Shown: positions 51,987-59,744 of the stretch, in pieces
Layout: each line of letters begins with the position of its first letter
Position numbering within the stretch: position 1 is the first letter of the stretch
Origin: a candidate division WOR-3 bacterium
Lineage (GTDB): Bacteria > SDB-A
Reading direction: 5' to 3'
Assembly (NCBI GenBank): GCA_016934535.1
Contig: JAFGSQ010000024.1
Coordinates: forward strand, 41,503-105,502
DNA length: 64,000 nt
Notes under the pieces: model-generated
Database searches by the model: none
Seen by the model: only the letters and a program-made list of their open reading frames with translations
Told to the model about the DNA's origin: nothing
Translations under genes and position numbers: made by a program

Positions 51987-52709
51987 TCAGTCGAAGACAA
52001 TGAATCCGCAGGTGCTGAATTCTGGTACGAGCTGGTATCCCTCAGTAAGTTTGATCCCAATTTTTTCTGCCTCAAGCAGTTTTAATATCTTGTACTGCTG
52101 CAACAAATCAGGACAACCCCTGTATCCTAACCCGTAACGCCTGCTTTTGGGGACTCTGCACTCACTCTCAACTCTTCTGCTGACGTACTTAGCACAAGCC
52201 TCCGTCAACTCACAGGCAAAACCGTTTAGTAGAAAATACTCAAGATACATGTCGTCGTTCAAAAGATTTTTAAGTTCACCCGAGAACGAATCTCCCGCTG
52301 TAACTGCGAACAGGCACCCGTTATCTTTCCCGAATTTATTTCTGAAAAAAAAACCGATTTCCGGGTCTTTTTGAGATTTTTTCGTTGGAAATACCAGTTC
52401 TTCTCTTTTTTCTCCGTTTACATCTATTAAATCGACCTTGTTCCCTCTTTTTCCAAACTTGAAATAAGCAAAGGAGCATCGCATGTCAGCGAGGTTTTTA
52501 TCAGAGACGGTTCTGACAATTTTCTCGAAGCTTTTTTCCGCATCGAAACCGAATCTTTCTCTTGTCCCTGCGTTTTTAAGATCCCACCTGACGTTGAAAA
52601 GTGCGTCCTTATCGAGGTGCTTGAGAATTTCACCCAAATGTAAGCTTTTTATTATTGTCAGTCGATCTGCAAACTGTTCTTGCGATTCAGCTCTTTTCGA
52701 ACCGCCCAC
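51987..52709 (-). CDS. Stand-alone B12-dependent methionine synthase activation domain
   Basis: FAVTAG, LTEACA, RYGLGYRGCPDL and LTEGYQLVPEFST; own GGAGG RBS and GTG start. Confidence 0.82.
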   Translation of the reverse strand: MGGSKRAESQEQFADRLTIIKSLHLGEILKHLDKDALFNVRWDLKNAGTRERFGFDAEKSFEKIVRTVSDKNLADMRCSFAYFKFGKRGNKVDLIDVNGEKREELVFPTKKSQKDPEIGFFFRNKFGKDNGCLFAVTAGDSFSGELKNLLNDDMYLEYFLLNGFACELTEACAKYVSRRVESECRVPKSRRYGLGYRGCPDLLQQYKILKLLEAEKIGIKLTEGYQLVPEFSTCGFIVFD

Positions 52710-55221
52710 GTCTTTCCTCCATAATCTTCATAGCCGCAAAAGCATCCCTGGCATAAAAGACCTCACTTTGAACGGCTTCTTTCACTTCTTTGACGTAACT
52801 TTCGCTAAGTGCTGCTCCTCCGCAGATGACAGCTACCCCCGGAGATGAATTTTTTAGTTCTTCGATCACTTTTTTCATGTACTGTGCAGAACTGATCAAG
52901 AGACCGCTCAAACCAACGAAATCCGGCTTCATCCCTTTTACTGATGCCGCTATCTCTTCGGCAGATTTGTCGACCCCAATATCTACGACTTCTATCCCGC
53001 TGTTCTCCAAAATTACTCTTACTATGTTTTTGCCTATGTCGTGAATGTCACCTTTAACGGTTGCGAGGATTATTTTTATTTTTTCTCCGTTGTTTTGCGC
53101 GCATTTTAAATGAGGTCTGAGCTTTTCTAACGCCTTGTGCATCGTCTGAGAAGAGCACAAGACGAAAGGTAGATGGGTTTCTCCCCTTTCAAACCTATCA
53201 CCGACGCTTTTCATCGCAGGAAGAAGGATATTCACGAGTATATCTTCGGCCCCAACTTTTTTAAGCAAATGGGATAAAACATCTTCTAATCCCTCTTCTC
53301 TCCCTCCAATTATATGAAACGTCAATTTATCTTCGTCGCTTTCAAAATCATTTTCAGTCGCTTTTGTGAAATGTTTTTTTTCATTTTTCCGCTCACCGAG
53401 GAACTCGGCCAATACATCACCCGGATCCTTCGTGCCGGAAAATATAAGCTCTTCAGCGCTAATCCTCGCTTTTTCCGGTATTTCATGTATCGGTCTGACT
53501 GAGGTGGTGTCTATTATTGCCGCATCGAGACCCGCCTTCAAAGCGTGATACAAATATACGGAGTTCAGCGCCGTCCGATGATTTTTGTCAAATCCGTGGG
53601 ACACATTGCTGATGCCGAGAATAGACTTGGTCCCGGGAAACATTTCCTTTAATAATTTCAGGGATTTTATGGCGGATTCTGCGCTTTTTCGCGTGAGGCA
53701 ATCCGCCGAAGCGAGAGAAAAGGTTAAAGGATCGAAGAAAATATCCTGAACCTTTATTCCGTGTTCGACAACGGCGAAGTCGAAAATTTTTCGGGCAATC
53801 TCGATTTTTTGTTTTAAATCAATGGCGTAACCTTTTTCATCGGCAAGAATACAGACCACAGCCGCACCGAATTCTCTGACTGTCTTCAGGATTCCTGAAG
53901 CTTTTTCCATGTTTTCAAGGCTGACTGAATTTACAAGCGTTTTTCCCGGATACGCCTTGAGGAATTCATTTACGGATTTTTCATCTGTAGTGTCCGCGCA
54001 GACAGGAACCTCCAATATTTTTCCCATCGATTTTCCGATTTCGGCGAAATCTCTGCTCTCGTTCCTTCCTGTAACAGCAAGGCTCAGATCCAAACAATGC
54101 ACGCCATTTTTTTGCTCGGCGAGAGCTAGGTCCAACACTTTCTTGATATCACCTCCGACAACAGCTTTTTTGAACTCCCTGCTTCCGGAAGCATTGGTTT
54201 TTTCAGAGATGATCAGCGGTTTCGGGAACATATCAGTCGACACGGACGAGTACAATGAGGCGAGTGAAGGTACGAATATTTTTTTGTTTTCACAGAAAGT
54301 CAGGCTCTCCGTCCTAATCACCAGTTGGCGTATATGTTCAAAAGAAACTCCGCAGCAGCCGCCCATCATCCTGAATCCGTGTTTCTTCGCCTGATTCACT
54401 ACTGTTTCGGCGAACTCTTCCGGACCGCAGTCGTAAGTAATGCTGTTTCTAACAACTCTCGGCATGCCGGCATTTGGCAGATACAGGAAATCGAAAGGTG
54501 AACTTTTCAGGAAATCTCCTATGGGGGCGTCAAATTGTTTCGGTCCGAATCCGCAATTCAGTCCGGCTGCGAGAAAGTCATAGGACTGAAACGTCCCGAG
54601 GAATGATTTGCACGACATACCCGCAACTGTCCTTCCTTTCTCTCCTATTGTTATAAGAACCGAAACGGGAATTTTTACCTGCCTCTGTTCAGCCACTTTG
54701 GCGGCGGCAGCAAGAGCGGCTTTTACCTGAATCGGATCCTGGCACGTCTCTATCTGAAGCATGTCCACCCCTCCCTCGGCAAGCCCCTGTATCTGCATTT
54801 CGAAAGATTTGAATAATTCGTCAAAAGTGATCTGACCCAGAACCGGAAATCTTCTTCCTGGACCTATGGAGCCTGAGACGTATCTTTTCTTTTTCCCTTT
54901 AGAATGTTTTTTTGCAGCCTTTTTTGCTATCCTTGCACCTTCAGCGTTGATCCTGCGGCAGAAGTCTTCCGCCCCCTCATCGTCAAGCGTCAGAAAATCC
55001 CCTCCAAAAGTGTTGGTTTCTATAACATCGCATCCTGCCTCGAGGAATCCCTCATGTATACCCGTTACCATATCGGGATTGTTCAGATTGAGCATTTCGT
55101 ATATTTCTCCGTCTTTTTTCGCAATACCGCGTTCGCTGGCGACAGACGCCAGTGAAGTGCCCATTCCGCCGTCAAAAATAACGGCGTTTCTTTTTATAAA
55201 ATCATCAAAATGTATCGCCAT
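52687..55221 (-). CDS. metH: Cobalamin-dependent methionine synthase (Hcy-binding, pterin-binding, cap and B12-binding domains)
   Basis: FDGGMGT, ETNTF, GLNCG and GGCCG (Zn ligands), SEKTNASGS, GISNVSHG, GDIHDIGKN and GLSGL. Confidence 0.92.
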   Translation of the reverse strand: MAIHFDDFIKRNAVIFDGGMGTSLASVASERGIAKKDGEIYEMLNLNNPDMVTGIHEGFLEAGCDVIETNTFGGDFLTLDDEGAEDFCRRINAEGARIAKKAAKKHSKGKKKRYVSGSIGPGRRFPVLGQITFDELFKSFEMQIQGLAEGGVDMLQIETCQDPIQVKAALAAAAKVAEQRQVKIPVSVLITIGEKGRTVAGMSCKSFLGTFQSYDFLAAGLNCGFGPKQFDAPIGDFLKSSPFDFLYLPNAGMPRVVRNSITYDCGPEEFAETVVNQAKKHGFRMMGGCCGVSFEHIRQLVIRTESLTFCENKKIFVPSLASLYSSVSTDMFPKPLIISEKTNASGSREFKKAVVGGDIKKVLDLALAEQKNGVHCLDLSLAVTGRNESRDFAEIGKSMGKILEVPVCADTTDEKSVNEFLKAYPGKTLVNSVSLENMEKASGILKTVREFGAAVVCILADEKGYAIDLKQKIEIARKIFDFAVVEHGIKVQDIFFDPLTFSLASADCLTRKSAESAIKSLKLLKEMFPGTKSILGISNVSHGFDKNHRTALNSVYLYHALKAGLDAAIIDTTSVRPIHEIPEKARISAEELIFSGTKDPGDVLAEFLGERKNEKKHFTKATENDFESDEDKLTFHIIGGREEGLEDVLSHLLKKVGAEDILVNILLPAMKSVGDRFERGETHLPFVLCSSQTMHKALEKLRPHLKCAQNNGEKIKIILATVKGDIHDIGKNIVRVILENSGIEVVDIGVDKSAEEIAASVKGMKPDFVGLSGLLISSAQYMKKVIEELKNSSPGVAVICGGAALSESYVKEVKEAVQSEVFYARDAFAAMKIMEERRGRFEKS

Positions 55222-55235
55222 GATTCATACCACTT

Positions 55236-56201
55236 TCACGAAAAACATCCCCGGAATCTTTCAAGTAAAAGATTCGTCGAAAGGGCTTTTCCCATAGTAA
55301 AAAGATGAACGCACGGAACCTCAAAGTCCAACAGTTTTTCTATCAACCCTGCCATGTATTTCGCGGCGGTTTCTCTTTCCTTTTCAGGAGTTTTCGCTTC
55401 TTCCATCCGCTTCAAAAATACATGGGGAACGGTCGCTGAAAAAATCCTCGGCACTGCTTCGAGTCCTCTTCTGCTCAACAGAGGTTTCAATCCGGGTATG
55501 ACAGGTACGCATATCCCTTTTACCCTCATTATTTCGACGAATCTCTTATAGACTCCGAAACCGAAAAATGCCTGGGTAATTGTGAATGATGCGCCTGCCG
55601 ATATTTTTTTTACGAAATTCTTTATATCCTCTTCGCGGTTCAAAGACTCGCGGTGCTTTTCTGGATAGCCTGCCGCACCAATACAGAAATCTGTACTCAC
55701 TGTCTCTCTGCCTCCTGCAGGCTCGGTGTAAATTCCCCTGTTGAGTCCGGATATCTGCTTTATCAGCTGAAACGCATATTTGTGCCCCTCTTCTTCATAT
55801 TTGAAGGCTCCTCGAGCGTCCATCGGGTCTCCTCTCACAGCAAAGACATTGTCGAAACCGAGAAAACTCAGATCTATAAGAAGATCTTCTGTTTTAAAAC
55901 GATCGAGTCCGGCGCAGACAACATGCGGAACGGTTTCTACGCCGAATTCCTTCCTTATGGCGGAGCATACGCCTATCGTTCCAGGTTTCCTGTTGTTGCT
56001 GGCCACGGAAATCTTTCCGTCTTTGCATGTGTACTCGAGGGAACATCCCTTGTTGGTAACGCTGACGAATCTGGGATTGTGAGCGATTATTTTGTCCATT
56101 GTCTTAAAAATTGAATCGATAGACGATCCCCTCTCGGGCGGTACAACTTCAAAAGACAGAGCAGGTTTCGCTCCTGGTTTCAGACAATCTGTAATTTTCA
56201 T
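55236..56201 (-). CDS. metF: Methylenetetrahydrofolate reductase
   Basis: SFEVVPP, VPHVVC, AVRGD, AGYPEKH, GASFTITQAFF and HLFTM. Confidence 0.88.
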   Translation of the reverse strand: MKITDCLKPGAKPALSFEVVPPERGSSIDSIFKTMDKIIAHNPRFVSVTNKGCSLEYTCKDGKISVASNNRKPGTIGVCSAIRKEFGVETVPHVVCAGLDRFKTEDLLIDLSFLGFDNVFAVRGDPMDARGAFKYEEEGHKYAFQLIKQISGLNRGIYTEPAGGRETVSTDFCIGAAGYPEKHRESLNREEDIKNFVKKISAGASFTITQAFFGFGVYKRFVEIMRVKGICVPVIPGLKPLLSRRGLEAVPRIFSATVPHVFLKRMEEAKTPEKERETAAKYMAGLIEKLLDFEVPCVHLFTMGKALSTNLLLERFRGCFS

Positions 56202-56962
56202 CTTGTAGATGCTCCTGACAGCGACAAGTCAATACCTTCAAGGCTTTTTATGCACAGCTTGTTTTCAAAAACACCGACGGCGCAGAGTATTTCCTCATCT
56301 CTTTCAGCTAAGGCTATCGCTTTTTCGAGGCCCTCAAAGCTTTTTACTTCATTGCTCAAAGCTGTGGCGTACATGTCAGCCAGAACAGGATCACGGCATA
56401 CGACCGTGAAAGAATCAGCCCAGCCAAAATTAAGTGAATGTCCGATTTTTCCCGATGAAGTGCAAATCCCGCAGGGAGTCAAATAAGGCTCCAGAGACAA
56501 CACCAGATCAGAACCGAAGCGGGCGCTTCCTGTTTCAATTATGACATTTACAGGTTTATTTGTTTTAAGATATATGTCTCCTCCGTTTTCTATAATGAAT
56601 TCCTTGACCGAATATCCGCTTTCAAGCAAGTTACCGATGATATTGGTAAAATATCCGGCAATGCCGGCCATAGGTCCGACTCCGGTTTTTTTTGAGTGTT
56701 CATAAAGTATCCTGAATTTGTCGATGCATTTATCGGGGTATTCAAGTGCGCTCAACGAGCTTAGAAAAATCGGGTTTTCAGATATGTGCTCATCAAACAG
56801 TTTTCTTGTTTCAATTATCTCCCCCAAAACGGCCTCAGGAAGAGACAGATCATAACTCAACGGATCTAATCCTATCCAAACGTCAGTGTCCAAAAATCCT
56901 GCTTCGAAATACCAGAATCTGTCCTCTCTGATTTTTTTTCTGTATGACCTCAGGGTAAACAT
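56198..56962 (-). CDS. UPF0280/COG2122 ApbE-like protein
   Basis: GVGPMAGIAG, IENGGD, GICTSSGKIGHSLNFG and ADMYAT. Confidence 0.85.
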   Translation of the reverse strand: MFTLRSYRKKIREDRFWYFEAGFLDTDVWIGLDPLSYDLSLPEAVLGEIIETRKLFDEHISENPIFLSSLSALEYPDKCIDKFRILYEHSKKTGVGPMAGIAGYFTNIIGNLLESGYSVKEFIIENGGDIYLKTNKPVNVIIETGSARFGSDLVLSLEPYLTPCGICTSSGKIGHSLNFGWADSFTVVCRDPVLADMYATALSNEVKSFEGLEKAIALAERDEEILCAVGVFENKLCIKSLEGIDLSLSGASTR

Positions 56963-58167
56963 ATTTCCTCCAAAAAAAACTTGTCCGTCCGTTTCGTATT
57001 TTTTCTTGTTTCGTCTCCGACAAAACTTTCAGGCCTGAGTGATTTCAATTTTCCGCCTTCCGGAAGGGGAGCAGAATATCCGGTTACTTCGAATTCTCCT
57101 GTAAGTATTCTGTCTTTCAAAACGCAAGCGATGTTTCTCGATTTGTGTATGCCGGATATGAGAAAAGTTCGCACTGTTCTGCCGAAGAGTTCAACTTTTC
57201 CTGAGGCGAGTTCGGAATAAGTGAAAAAGCAAAGTCTTTCTTTGTCCTTTGTCGAAAAATCCGCGATAGGCACTTCGATGTCTCTGTTTCTCACCGATGC
57301 GTAAAAAGCACTATCTTCGTCTGTTATCGGGACAGGCACTCCTATACCGACAAAAAGGCTCACTCCATAATTCCTGAAATAAGCAGGGCCGATGAATTCC
57401 GTGTCCATTTTTTTCAAGTCGCCGATGACTGATATTGACGCAGCGTTTTTCAGCGGTATTCCACGGGAATTCCTCTCGGTGACTGTCTCGTGCTGAGTTC
57501 CGTTCCAGCAGATAAATCCCTGAGCGCCGCATAGAAATATTTTTGTACCTATACCTATATTTTTGAGATAAGGGTCGTTTATAAGAGGGCTAAGTTCCCC
57601 CGTCGTGCAAAAATTAATATTGCCGGCTTTTTTCCGAAGAGTGCCCATGTATGTGTGTATGTCTTTTTCTGAAAGATTGAGCGCTGCAGGATAGTTTTGA
57701 TAGGCGTTTCTCGGATTGAAAAGAAATGCTTCGTTTATTTCATATTTGGAAACTTGCGTCGCAAGTTCTTTTTTCGGATAACAATCCGTCCCCTTCGCTT
57801 TCGCTTCTAGTAAAATCTTTTCACCCTTGACTAGAGAAAAGATCACGTTTGCCCCTCCGTATTTAGGATCTTCCTCAGATGTTTGTGCGGCTCCTATGTA
57901 AGCGTCTGCGGCGGCTATTCCTCCGTGCGCTCTGACTTTGTTCAAAAATATCTCTTCCATTCTTATCGGCGGAGAACAGTTCCCGAAATTCAAAAAAGCT
58001 CCGCTGGAACACATTGGAGAAAAAGTGGCTGTCGTGACAACGTCAACTTTCTCCGCGAGCTCCTTAGGTGATTTTTCGCATGCCATTTTTTTGAATTCTT
58101 CGGCTGTAAGCACTACCCCTTTTCTGTTTTTTATTTTTTCACGGATTTCTTCCAATGATTTGTTCAT
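56950..58167 (-). CDS. Homocysteine biosynthesis protein (DUF39; aspartate-semialdehyde sulfurtransferase-like)
   Basis: VDVVTTATFSPMCSSG, NPRNAYQNY, TYMG, GELSPLINDP, IGIGTKIFL.GAQG and GIGVPVP; AAAGAGG RBS. Confidence 0.87.
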   Translation of the reverse strand: MNKSLEEIREKIKNRKGVVLTAEEFKKMACEKSPKELAEKVDVVTTATFSPMCSSGAFLNFGNCSPPIRMEEIFLNKVRAHGGIAAADAYIGAAQTSEEDPKYGGANVIFSLVKGEKILLEAKAKGTDCYPKKELATQVSKYEINEAFLFNPRNAYQNYPAALNLSEKDIHTYMGTLRKKAGNINFCTTGELSPLINDPYLKNIGIGTKIFLCGAQGFICWNGTQHETVTERNSRGIPLKNAASISVIGDLKKMDTEFIGPAYFRNYGVSLFVGIGVPVPITDEDSAFYASVRNRDIEVPIADFSTKDKERLCFFTYSELASGKVELFGRTVRTFLISGIHKSRNIACVLKDRILTGEFEVTGYSAPLPEGGKLKSLRPESFVGDETRKNTKRTDKFFLEEICLP

Positions 58168-58229
58168 TGTTTACCTCTTTACGCGCGCGAAAACGCGCAG
58201 AAATAAATTTTGTGTGTAACTTTGTTTTG

Positions 58230-58262
58230 AAAAAAAAGACTTACACGCGCATTCGCATGTAA
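58230..58262 (-). terminator. Terminator-like hairpin (candidate attenuator) in the met operon leader
   Basis: Minus strand T-TACATGCG-AATG-CGCGTGTA-A (9 bp, one G.U pair), then GTC and T8; overlaps the last codons of the leader peptide. Confidence 0.6.
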
Positions 58263-58369
58263 TGGGAGGGCATAATGCTTTTGGATGACTGCGTGCTGAA
58301 ATCCGGCGATTCGACAGCACCGCAGAAGATCACGCCGGCCTCGCTTGTCTGGGCGAAGATATTTTTCAT
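58241..58369 (-). CDS. Putative leader peptide (42 aa, Met at 33/38/40)
   Basis: AGGAGG (58380-58375), 5 nt, ATG 58369; MKNIFAQTSEAGVIFCGAVESPDFSTQSSKSIMPSHYMRMRV*. Confidence 0.65.
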   Translation of the reverse strand: MKNIFAQTSEAGVIFCGAVESPDFSTQSSKSIMPSHYMRMRV

Positions 58370-58395
58370 CCTGACCTCCTTATTAAGATTTCGGA

Positions 58396-58423
58396 ATGAT
58401 AAGACTTTTTTAAAAAAAAGCAA
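58396..58423 (-). promoter_or_regulatory. Promoter for the met leader and operon
   Basis: TTGCTT (58423-58418), 16 nt spacer, TATCAT (58401-58396), just upstream of the leader RBS. Confidence 0.55.
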
Positions 58424-58457
58424 GCCGTTTTTTAAAGCATGCTACTTCAAAAAAAAA

Positions 58458-59744
58458 TCACGAAAAAGAGACGTCTTTTATCAGCACGTAAGGGGATCTC
58501 GCATTTCCGTAATCTGTCGTCTCTTTTGAGACCGCATCTATGTTCAATAGCATTTCAGCGGTGTTCGCCGTCATCATGATTTCTTTTACCGGACATTTTA
58601 TTCTGCCGTTTTCTATGTAATAACTGTTTTTACACACGCCGGATATCTCTCCGCCGACGCTGGGAGAGCCGCCTGAAAATCTATCGAGAAATATTCCTTT
58701 TTTAACGTTTTGAATCATAGACTGTAAATCTTGATCCCCGGGAAGTATTTCGGTGTGATTGCCGCTCAGATTTTTGGATCTTGGAAGTCCCGTCTTCCTC
58801 GATCCGTAGTAAGAAATAAAATAACTCTTTAAAATACCATCTTTAATTACGTCCATATCTTCAGTCAAAAATCCGTCAAAAGTAAAATAATCCCTGAAAA
58901 CAGACTTGTCTGAGAGGGGCGAGATTTTAATATTCAGGAGAGGCGAAGCTATTTTTTCCCCGAGTTTGTCGCTGTAAATACTCGTTCCGGTTATTAGTCT
59001 GTTTTCGTGCAGGGGATACAATAAATCATCCGACATTTCGAGCATTGCTTTGGGAGTGACTATGAGATCTCCTTTGAATTTTTCATTCAAAGCTATGCTT
59101 TCGATGTGTTCCACCGAGTTTTTAAGCAATGAATCCAGTCCGCATTTGTCAACAATATGTCCATTGATCTGATCTAAATCGAGTGAAAAATAATTGAAAG
59201 AAGAAATATTTTTGTCTCTTTTTGCAGTAAAGAAAAGCCATACATTGTAAAACGAACGATCTTGGGTGAAATAACATCCGTTGGTGTTTGCGTATGCTAT
59301 TTCGCTTTTTTTGTGAGAAAAAAAACTGTCTGAAAAAATCACTTCGGGATATCTTGACTTTGCTTCGTCTAAAAACTCCTGGAAGGCGTCATTCATTTTT
59401 TCTATGTCGGGTTCGCTCGAATTTCCCATAAATCTTCTTACTGAATTTTCGGGACTGATGTCGTTTGCTTCATCAGGAACTGCAGACATACACATATCAA
59501 GAAGAAGTTCTGCGGTATTCTTTATGTCTTCATTTGAAAAGTTATTAAGCGTAATATCGGCTTTTCTGTTATCGCAATATGCTTCTATCTGAATTTCGTT
59601 ATTCTGAGTTGACCTGAAAAAATTTATTTTATCCTTCTCGACGTTCAATTCGGCTATTTCTCTTTTGAAACTTAACAACGCGCTTTTTTGAGCGCCTTTC
59701 TTGACGACCTCATTTAATATTTCTCTCGACTTTTTCTCATCCAT
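58458..59744 (-). CDS. PmbA/TldE-family protein
   Basis: Adjacent to tldD; FDGF..VIKDGILKSY, RSKNLSGN, ISGVC..SYYIENG..PVKE..T and SPYV; no HExxGH. Confidence 0.85.
   Translation of the reverse strand: MDEKKSREILNEVVKKGAQKSALLSFKREIAELNVEKDKINFFRSTQNNEIQIEAYCDNRKADITLNNFSNEDIKNTAELLLDMCMSAVPDEANDISPENSVRRFMGNSSEPDIEKMNDAFQEFLDEAKSRYPEVIFSDSFFSHKKSEIAYANTNGCYFTQDRSFYNVWLFFTAKRDKNISSFNYFSLDLDQINGHIVDKCGLDSLLKNSVEHIESIALNEKFKGDLIVTPKAMLEMSDDLLYPLHENRLITGTSIYSDKLGEKIASPLLNIKISPLSDKSVFRDYFTFDGFLTEDMDVIKDGILKSYFISYYGSRKTGLPRSKNLSGNHTEILPGDQDLQSMIQNVKKGIFLDRFSGGSPSVGGEISGVCKNSYYIENGRIKCPVKEIMMTANTAEMLLNIDAVSKETTDYGNARSPYVLIKDVSFS

Follow-up and report, generated by a model that had tools for sequence, protein, structure and literature searches.

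Methionine genes of bacteria are, by the textbook account, controlled by S-adenosylmethionine (SAM) riboswitches, T-boxes or protein repressors. Textbook examples of leader-peptide attenuation concern Trp, His, Leu, Thr, Phe, and Ile/Val, and our full-text literature searches found no documented methionine leader-peptide attenuator. Translated leaders are also used in two other ways. The leader open reading frame (ORF) of pyrBI and pyrE of E. coli is translated into the terminator, and a close-following ribosome blocks the hairpin directly; these operons sense UTP via polymerase pausing at U-rich sites and have no cognate-codon cluster. In the ermC and cat leaders, a held ribosome rearranges the pairing and frees a downstream ribosome-binding site (RBS), with antibiotics causing the stall via the nascent peptide. 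In Actinobacteria, the regulatory codons of the ilvB leaders overlap the terminator hairpin and the cys leaders have Cys runs near the stop codon, and no conserved RNA structure is reported upstream of the methionine operons (Seliverstov et al. 2005, PMC1262725). We compared these systems with the leader preceding the HcyBio (DUF39) methionine operon of a candidate division WOR-3 bacterium, analyzed within a 64,000-nucleotide stretch of contig JAFGSQ010000024.1 (the window; all coordinates are window positions, and all leader elements are on the minus strand). The first-pass annotation had proposed a methionine-sensing leader-peptide attenuator at this site. The ORF, its Met codons and the terminator proved to be conserved and Met-rich leaders were found independently elsewhere, but a trp-style switch was not upheld. 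We regard the element as a real variant of leader-peptide attenuator in which sensing codons, stop codon, anti-Shine-Dalgarno (anti-SD) sequence and terminator are fused, and which probably senses methionine.

The leader ORF has 42 codons, and its product is MKNIFAQTSEAGVIFCGAVESPDFSTQSSKSIMPSHYMRMRV. Translation bore out the annotated arrangement, in which codons 33, 38 and 40 are the only internal Met codons. Three Met codons within the last ten occur in 1 of the 457 small ORFs (12 to 60 amino acids) of the window, the leader ORF alone. Codons 36 to 42 and the stop codon make up an intrinsic-terminator hairpin that reads as DNA TTACATGCG-AATG-CGCGTGTAA, followed by GTC and eight T residues. 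As RNA it has a 5' arm UUACAUGCG (T5), an AAUG loop and a 3' arm CGCGUGUAA (T3) that includes the stop codon (58243-58241); Met38 and Met40 are part of T5 and the loop. This 9-bp hairpin with its GTC-T8 tail, which had been annotated from the letters, was also found by the terminator scan. The remaining elements of that annotation were all re-read at their positions on the minus strand, including the AGGAGG RBS (58380-58375), a GTGCTG/CAGCAC stem in the middle of the ORF (58320-58293), and a GCGCG-TTTT-CGCGC hairpin (58198-58185) ahead of the HcyBio RBS. The annotated promoter, TTGCTT-N16-TATCAT, stood in part: both hexamers are present and conserved in relatives, but a generic promoter scan flags nothing there (TTGCTT matches 3/6).

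Relatives were found by a protein search with HcyBio, and the contigs encoding the closest matches were fetched. Three related uncultured lineages were recovered, with HcyBio proteins 97, 73 and 69% identical to that of the window (L001 is the close relative, L005 and L006 are the two more distant ones), and all three have the layout tldD-pmbA, leader of about 290 nucleotides (nt), HcyBio, AbpE-like gene, metF and metH. For L005 and L006, the metagenome-assembled genomes bear the labels WOR-3 and Desulfuromonadaceae. The comparison thus comprises four distinct leader sequences. The invariant alignment blocks are the promoter-like hexamers, TTCCGAA, AAGGAGG-n-CAGGATGA, and a 45-nt block from CATCC to the stop codon; GCTTGNTTTTT around the -35-like hexamer is conserved as well. 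The leader ORF is open in all four sequences, with invariant Shine-Dalgarno (SD) sequence and ATG, the stop codon at the same place, and all three Met codons retained despite peptide divergence. Its sole indel is 6 nt long and in frame; several indels in the noncoding spacer downstream of the T-tract, by comparison, have lengths not divisible by three. Across the central part of the ORF, the three codon positions have been substituted about equally (5/4/4, L005 versus L006), indicating that the peptide is not conserved there. The last 11 codons specify the identical peptide IMPSHYMRMRV-stop in all relatives, and the four changes among them (in Ile32, Ser35, His36 and the stop codon) are all synonymous third-position changes. 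The hairpin also covaries at its outermost pair, where U-A of the window is replaced by U.G in L005 and by C-G in L006 (RNAalifold). A leader peptide would be expected to show just this, an open frame constrained only at its ends, and the alignment suggests that the conserved ORF is very probably translated. Searches beyond these relatives gave little. A search for related loci with HcyBio as the only query protein had no matches. A degenerate pattern for M-x2-HYMRMRV-stop matched only the same two more distant lineages among GTDB genomes, a looser pattern gave just two chance matches in JGI metagenomes (TGG in place of the stop codon, HcyBio not nearby), and a protein search with the 42-residue peptide found no called homologue.

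No promoter-like sequence was seen by reading between the terminator and HcyBio, the promoter scan flagged nothing there, and a promoter at this place was rejected; the operon must therefore be transcribed through the terminator. We are fairly confident that the translated leader and terminator gate the operon. The hairpin and T8 tract would have a different role if they terminated tldD-pmbA or an independent small-protein gene, with met regulation located elsewhere. There is indeed no terminator after the pmbA stop codon (58458), and RNA from a relative reaches upstream of the predicted start. This RNA comes from sludge metatranscriptomes in which low-depth contigs of the L006 lineage were matched with the conserved stretch of the window; one contig begins at mid-ORF, crosses the terminator and continues to 399 nt beyond the stop codon, and one reaches past the predicted start by about 30 nt on the upstream side. 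Metatranscriptomes of the window's own study contained no reads of the locus. However, the stretch from T-tract to HcyBio has little conservation in addition to lacking promoter-like sequence, the leader has its own conserved promoter-like hexamers, and the layout recurs in all relatives, so that we give this explanation hardly any credence.

Methionine is favored as the signal because Met-rich leader ORFs recur before the HcyBio operons of other lineages, including other phyla. We sampled such operons in L014 and L016 to L023, and about five of the nine lineages have a Met-rich leader ORF, compared to a background of less than 1% per small ORF. The HcyBio-NIL/Fer4-AbpE operon of L014 is preceded by the leader MRYTNKIQKNNNSMMQVMAMCGAIYSG, with the Met cluster SMMQVMAMCG, followed by a 12-bp terminator and U8 (L014:2328-2475); its antiterminator, GCUGACGCUCU:AGAGCCGUCGGC, overlaps the stop codon. 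In L018, an aspartate kinase-HcyBio operon is preceded by the leader MRCTGLTLNTEMFMAMQTMLINLQRCSG (containing EMFMAMQTM), a terminator, and a second leader in tandem (L018:797-1082). The antiterminators of L014 and L018 have energies of -16.6 and -13.4 kcal/mol, and their 5' strands overlap the stop codon. When a ribosome was masked at the Met codons the antiterminator formed, and with the mask at the stop codon it was lost. As modeled, the L014 leader and the first L018 leader are textbook attenuators. SAM-I riboswitches precede HcyBio in L019 (Puteibacter caeruleilacunae), L022 and L023, with scores of 71 to 80 bits (71 to 72 for L019 and L022). In L019 (2163-2370) and L022 (1108-1330), a Met-rich ORF starts within 12 to 14 nt of the SAM-I element and is followed by HcyBio; an expression platform for the riboswitch was not recognized. 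The L019 ORF ends in FMHFSNMCMR-stop, with the same Met spacing as in the window (M-x4-M-x-M). The L022 ORF, MNIF...QSSMYMRGMR-stop, has the MNIF start, QSS, and the YMR...MR-stop ending in common with the window, and its Tyr and Arg codons in this ending are synonymous with those of the window. The combination of SAM-I and Met-rich ORF may be a two-input leader responding to SAM and Met-tRNA, with the sensors in series. Met-rich leader ORFs were not found in L016, L017, L021 and L023, and L020 has a weak candidate (RAMMY). Overall, we lean slightly toward the Met codons being what is read.

Two further observations concern the sampled operons. The second L018 leader contains two MIMS-containing ORFs that overlap via ATGA (PMIMSLSP-stop and MIMSVCHTF), the second of which runs through a terminator and ends at an ATGA overlapping the kinase start. 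In L016, a cobalamin riboswitch (L016:5029-5154, 72.7 bits) is located downstream of HcyBio-NIL/Fer4-AbpE, presumably ahead of a B12-independent methionine synthase or transporter.

The conserved 3' end of the ORF is also predicted to engage in long-range RNA pairing. The RNAalifold consensus contains a 13-pair helix, with all paired bases invariant, between the leader SD sequence and start codon (SD1 strand) and a 3' side composed of UCAUCC (codons 28-29) and UG-CCCUCY (codons 33-35), with CCCUCY as the anti-SD sequence. The 10-nt internal loop between them (codons 30-32) is variable, including nonsynonymous changes. The SD1 duplex has energies of -15.8 kcal/mol in the window and -17.4 kcal/mol in L001 (shuffle p = 0.018 and 0.006). 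The HcyBio RBS (SD2) is the better partner of the anti-SD sequence in L005 and L006, at -15.4 and -19.1 kcal/mol (shuffle p ~0.004). The GC hairpin ahead of SD2 has five conserved pairs, one of them compensatory, and its 3' half, CGCGCGU, is invariant and also complementary to T3 and the terminator loop (-10.7 to -13.7 kcal/mol). The strand from the anti-SD sequence to T3 can be paired with the strand from the 3' arm of the GC hairpin (H3) to SD2. This duplex has an energy of -17.6 kcal/mol in both the window and L001 (shuffle p = 0.026 and 0.019) and of -24.1 and -28.0 kcal/mol in L005 and L006, for which 0/1000 shuffles each were as good. In ribosome-free RNA, the predicted unpaired probability of SD2 is 0.06 in the window, 0.35 in L001, 0.02 in L005 and 0.00 in L006. 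A ribosome mask at codons 29 to 39 of L005, which include its three Met codons, raised this probability from 0.02 to 0.4-0.6.

From these results, we propose the following mechanism. Transcription would start about 10 to 15 nt ahead of the strong leader RBS, and the 42-codon ORF would be translated. The last ten codons (with Met33, Met38 and Met40) and the stop codon would serve in the RNA as the anti-SD sequence CCCUCC followed by the intrinsic terminator. With no ribosome on this stretch, the terminator hairpin would form and the operon would be off, while the anti-SD sequence would pair with the leader's own RBS in the window lineage or with that of HcyBio in two relatives. A ribosome at codons 33 to 42 would keep the 5' arm and the anti-SD sequence single-stranded and so favor read-through, and the same occupancy would, at least in relatives, favor HcyBio translation. 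Scarcity of charged Met-tRNA would prolong it. The control would be by direct ribosome occlusion and cover of the anti-SD sequence; unlike in trp or his, an antiterminator would not be involved. We infer the translation of the ORF, the role of the Met codons as the sensed signal, and the direction and timing of the effect. A ribosome-read leader gating the HcyBio-AbpE-metF-metH operon is, as a whole explanation, evenly balanced between right and wrong, and the specific combination of ribosome occlusion with SD unmasking is put forward tentatively.

An antiterminator had been suggested in which CACGC (58295-58291) would pair with the terminator 3' arm. This did not hold up, as the pairing exists only in the window and L001 and is absent in L005 and L006. 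The GCACGC:GCGUGU pairing has an energy of -8.0 kcal/mol, and L005 and L006 have different, nonhomologous weak partners when all terminator helices are listed. No conserved antiterminator was found among the terminator-involving helices of the four sequences, and in folds that stop short of the 3' arm, the terminator 5' arm remains single-stranded. A trp/his-type switch was therefore rejected, since the antiterminator is not conserved and the stop codon is inside the 3' arm. We also rejected an antiterminator formed by lengthening the SD1:anti-SD helix into the base of the terminator, as the minimum-free-energy folds keep the full terminator. With the stop codon located in the 3' arm, a ribosome can block termination only by sitting on the hairpin.

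Several points weigh against the proposed mechanism. We took the ribosome to shield about 15 to 16 nt of mRNA beyond the first P-site base, with about 27 to 34 nt separating the P site from the polymerase active site when the two are as close as possible. With this geometry, the nearest ribosome would have about codon 35 to 37 in its P site when the polymerase is in the T-tract. Met38 and Met40 would be decoded after the termination decision, with the polymerase at or beyond the T-tract by then, and a ribosome waiting at Met33 would extend no further than one or two bases into the hairpin and leave it almost free. In a simple coupling model, Met shortage at Met33 would lead to more termination, which is the wrong sign. 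The SD1:anti-SD pairing is only modestly better than in shuffled sequences in these folding calculations (p = 0.006-0.16). In the window, SD2 is predicted to pair locally, and ribosome masking leaves its unpaired probability at 0.06 throughout. RNA pairing, in the SD/AUG helix or in the terminator, also accounts for every conserved codon at the 3' end of the ORF; with conservation at the nucleotide level and hardly any synonymous changes, the Met codons could be by-products, and arguments from peptide conservation are weakened. The independent lineages are only three, and the L006-lineage RNA contigs are either read-through RNA or DNA carry-over and are silent on regulation. Timing and sign are accordingly doubtful for a first-round Met sensor. 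The first-pass claim that a ribosome stalled on Met codons covers the 5' arm is kinetically questionable as stated, although the conserved Met-codon ORF and terminator on which it was built are there. It would be plausible only if the loss of two basal U-A pairs disables the terminator, whose T-tract is already 3 nt away, if the polymerase pauses within the 3' arm, or if the main effect is posttranscriptional.

The same geometry favors read-through when ribosome and polymerase are coupled: in a simple first-round model, tight coupling would give read-through and a lagging ribosome would give termination. The leader could be a translation-coupling attenuator without methionine specificity, similar to pyrBI and pyrE, in which a close-following ribosome suppresses the terminator. 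What is sensed would then be the rate of leader translation, polymerase pausing or a factor at the leader RBS, and the Met codons would reflect the hairpin and anti-SD sequence. The ORF does enter the terminator and lacks an antiterminator, its 3' end is conserved at the nucleotide level with every Met codon in or adjoining a helix, and G-10/Y-1/G+1 pause-like positions were identified by eye inside the 3' arm. However, unrelated leaders of this operon type also have Met clusters, and two of these leaders are textbook attenuators; L019 and L022 retain near-stop Met codons in a different nucleotide context; Met40 is invariant although it is in the hairpin loop; and there is no U-rich pause region as in pyrBI. 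We consider this alternative unlikely, while keeping it in view.

Regulation could also be mainly translational, as in ermC and cat, with the terminator setting only a basal level. In full-length mRNA, the strand from the anti-SD sequence to T3 would mask the HcyBio RBS, and ribosomes lingering on codons 33 to 42 would unmask it; the sign would be right and tight timing unneeded. The bipartite duplex of L005 and L006 (-24 to -28 kcal/mol) and the opening of SD2 by the ribosome mask in L005 are consistent with this. In contrast, the duplex is weaker in the window and L001 (p ~0.02), where SD2 pairs locally (UUUAUUUCU with AGAGGUAAA, predicted) and is unaffected by masking, and the conserved T-tract and covarying basal terminator pair would be left unexplained. 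A mainly translational mechanism is quite improbable in our estimate. Unmasking of SD2 in the window itself was rejected, as the thermodynamic model gives no support for it.

The invariant C terminus could also point to a ligand-sensing arrest peptide similar to TnaC or SpeFL, in which methionine, SAM, S-adenosylhomocysteine (SAH) or homocysteine would cause IMPSHYMRMRV to halt the ribosome on the terminator. The 11 C-terminal residues are invariant with a middle that is free to vary, and a similar YMRGMR-stop occurs in a Bacteroidota-type leader (L022) with different Tyr and Arg codons. However, the conservation is at the nucleotide level and fully explained by RNA pairing, the L019 ending differs (SNMCMR), and the sign is hard to square with end-product repression. 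We judge an arrest peptide very unlikely.

The reported absence of SAM-I and T-box motifs was confirmed with Rfam: there was no match in the leader, either at gathering thresholds in a scan of the whole window or at E values up to 10 in positions 58100-58520, and the leaders of the three relatives gave no SAM/SAH aptamer or other match. The SAM-I elements of L019, L022 and L023 served as the positive control. A SAM riboswitch or T-box was rejected on this basis. Rho-dependent (tna-like) control was left aside, given a canonical terminator and a spacer rich in A rather than C. The ORF would be incidental if the leader were an undescribed riboswitch or a protein-binding RNA, with the helix between SD/AUG and UCAUCC...CCCUCC as its closing stem. 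A terminator does come after a closing helix, as in many riboswitches, and the leader fold is more stable than those of shuffled sequences (z = -3.2). However, the interior is not conserved between lineages in sequence or structure, and translation is favored by the perfect SD sequence at its optimal distance, the unchanged start and stop positions and the in-frame indel, so that such an RNA seems scarcely probable.

The features of the locus are listed in the table below.

Table. Leader elements and genes of the HcyBio operon in the window
Feature	Position	Strand	Basis or remark
-35-like hexamer TTGCTT	58418..58423	-	read from sequence; TTGATT in L005 and L006
-10-like hexamer TATCAT	58396..58401	-	16-nt spacer from TTGCTT; TATCAT or TATTAT in all relatives
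Leader Shine-Dalgarno sequence (SD1) AGGAGG	58375..58380	-	5 nt before ATG; AAGGAGG invariant in all four distinct sequences
Long-range helix 5' strand GGAGG-n-CA-GGAUGA (SD1 and start codon)	58366..58379	-	RNAalifold
Leader ORF, 42 codons and TAA	58241..58369	-	ATG at 58369, TAA 58243-58241
Mid-ORF hairpin GC(G)GUGCUG...CAGCACGC	58291..58323	-	sequence and fold
UCAUCC, codons 28-29	58283..58288	-	invariant; complementary to GGAUGA at leader start codon
Anti-SD AUG(Met33)-CCCUCC	58265..58273	-	pairs with SD1 in window lineage
Internal Met codons of leader ORF	M33 58273-58271, M38 58258-58256, M40 58252-58250	-	
Intrinsic-terminator hairpin	58241..58262	-	terminator scan, 9 pairs; RNAalifold
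T8 tract	58230..58237	-	3 nt (GTC) past stem; T-run present in all relatives
GC hairpin GCGCG-UUUU-CGCGC (arms H5, H3) and GCGU	58181..58198	-	no T-tract after; 2 nt before HcyBio SD
HcyBio RBS (SD2) AGAGG 58174-58178, ATG 58165-58167	58165..58178	-	read from sequence
Controlled operon	51987..58167	-	Pfam matches; gene order common to relatives
HcyBio/DUF39	56950-58167	-	Pfam
AbpE-like	56198-56962	-	Pfam
MetF (methylenetetrahydrofolate reductase, MTHFR)	55236-56201	-	Pfam
MetH	52687-55221	-	Pfam
MetH activation domain	51987-52709	-	Pfam

The genes upstream of the leader encode PmbA and TldD (Pfam). By reading of positions 58424-58460, no terminator follows the pmbA stop codon, and tldD-pmbA transcripts may read into the leader. 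The invariant TTCCGAA directly after the -10 hexamer (58391-58395 in the window) is located in otherwise variable surroundings outside any predicted helix and is the probable discriminator and transcription start. The mid-ORF hairpin is possibly a pause hairpin; L005 and L006 also have a hairpin at this site but of different sequence (CCGGG/CCCGG), and RNAalifold detects compensatory pairs. Cys codons are frequent in the leader ORFs of the window, L005, L006, L014, L018, L019 and L020 (about 10 in 260 codons), one of them at a conserved position just 5' of the mid-ORF hairpin in the window clade, and they may provide secondary cysteine or sulfur sensing. Within the spacer after the terminator, CACA-AA (58211-58216) is a short invariant motif in an otherwise variable stretch outside predicted helices, and it could be a recognition site for a protein or an RNase. 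A gene for a NIL-ferredoxin partner follows HcyBio in L014, L016, L018, L019, L022 and L023 and is lacking in the window operon (56198-58167), L017, L020 and L021.

If the Met codons are read, bacteria can monitor charged Met-tRNA directly and apart from SAM, which would explain how the DUF39/HcyBio route is regulated in lineages without SAM riboswitches. We also advance, as a speculation with less than even prospects, that the window leader is one member of an ancient family of Met-sensing leader peptides that spans phyla. Members of such a family would have an A/U-rich start encoding M-x-IF, an M-x4-M-x-M or M-x-M-x2-M pattern before the stop codon, and a hairpin built from those codons. The family would guard sulfide-dependent homocysteine/methionine operons, sitting behind SAM-I in Bacteroidota-type genomes and having replaced the riboswitch altogether in the window lineage. 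If this is true, then together with the L014 and L018 leaders, ribosome-mediated methionine attenuation would be a widespread and so far undescribed regulatory class. The tandem of SAM-I aptamer and Met-rich ORF is a natural two-signal system to dissect.

Compared to the E. coli and Salmonella leaders trpL, hisL, leuL, thrL, pheL and ilv, the window leader is similar in having a short ORF with a strong RBS, a biosynthetic operon downstream, a cluster of cognate codons, and an intrinsic terminator before the first structural gene. The conserved leader ORF with RBS, the Met cluster and the terminator of a classical attenuator are thus present, the terminator overlapping the ORF rather than following it, whereas a conserved antiterminator and a stop codon upstream of the terminator are lacking. 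It also differs in that its amino acid would be methionine and in that the regulatory codons and stop codon are inside the terminator, not upstream of a 2:3/3:4 switch. Sensing codons and stop codon inside a terminator, beside an anti-SD sequence, make a compact design with a logic outside the trp paradigm. The locus resembles pyrBI and pyrE in that the leader ORF runs into the terminator hairpin, an arrangement that needs no antiterminator, but it has no U-rich pause tract before the hairpin. With ermC and cat it would share the rearrangement that frees an RBS, for which L005 and L006 give in silico support; the cause of the stall would here be a shortage of Met-tRNA, and an intrinsic terminator is also present. 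SAM-I (S-box) elements occupy the same position before the same target operon in L019, L022 and L023, while the window and its three relatives have no SAM/SAH aptamer. The Actinobacterial ilvB and cys leaders (PMC1262725) are likewise missing components of the classical attenuator, although they concern other amino acids and another phylum. By analogy, the ilvB leaders are the closest published geometry to that of the window leader and a precedent for it.

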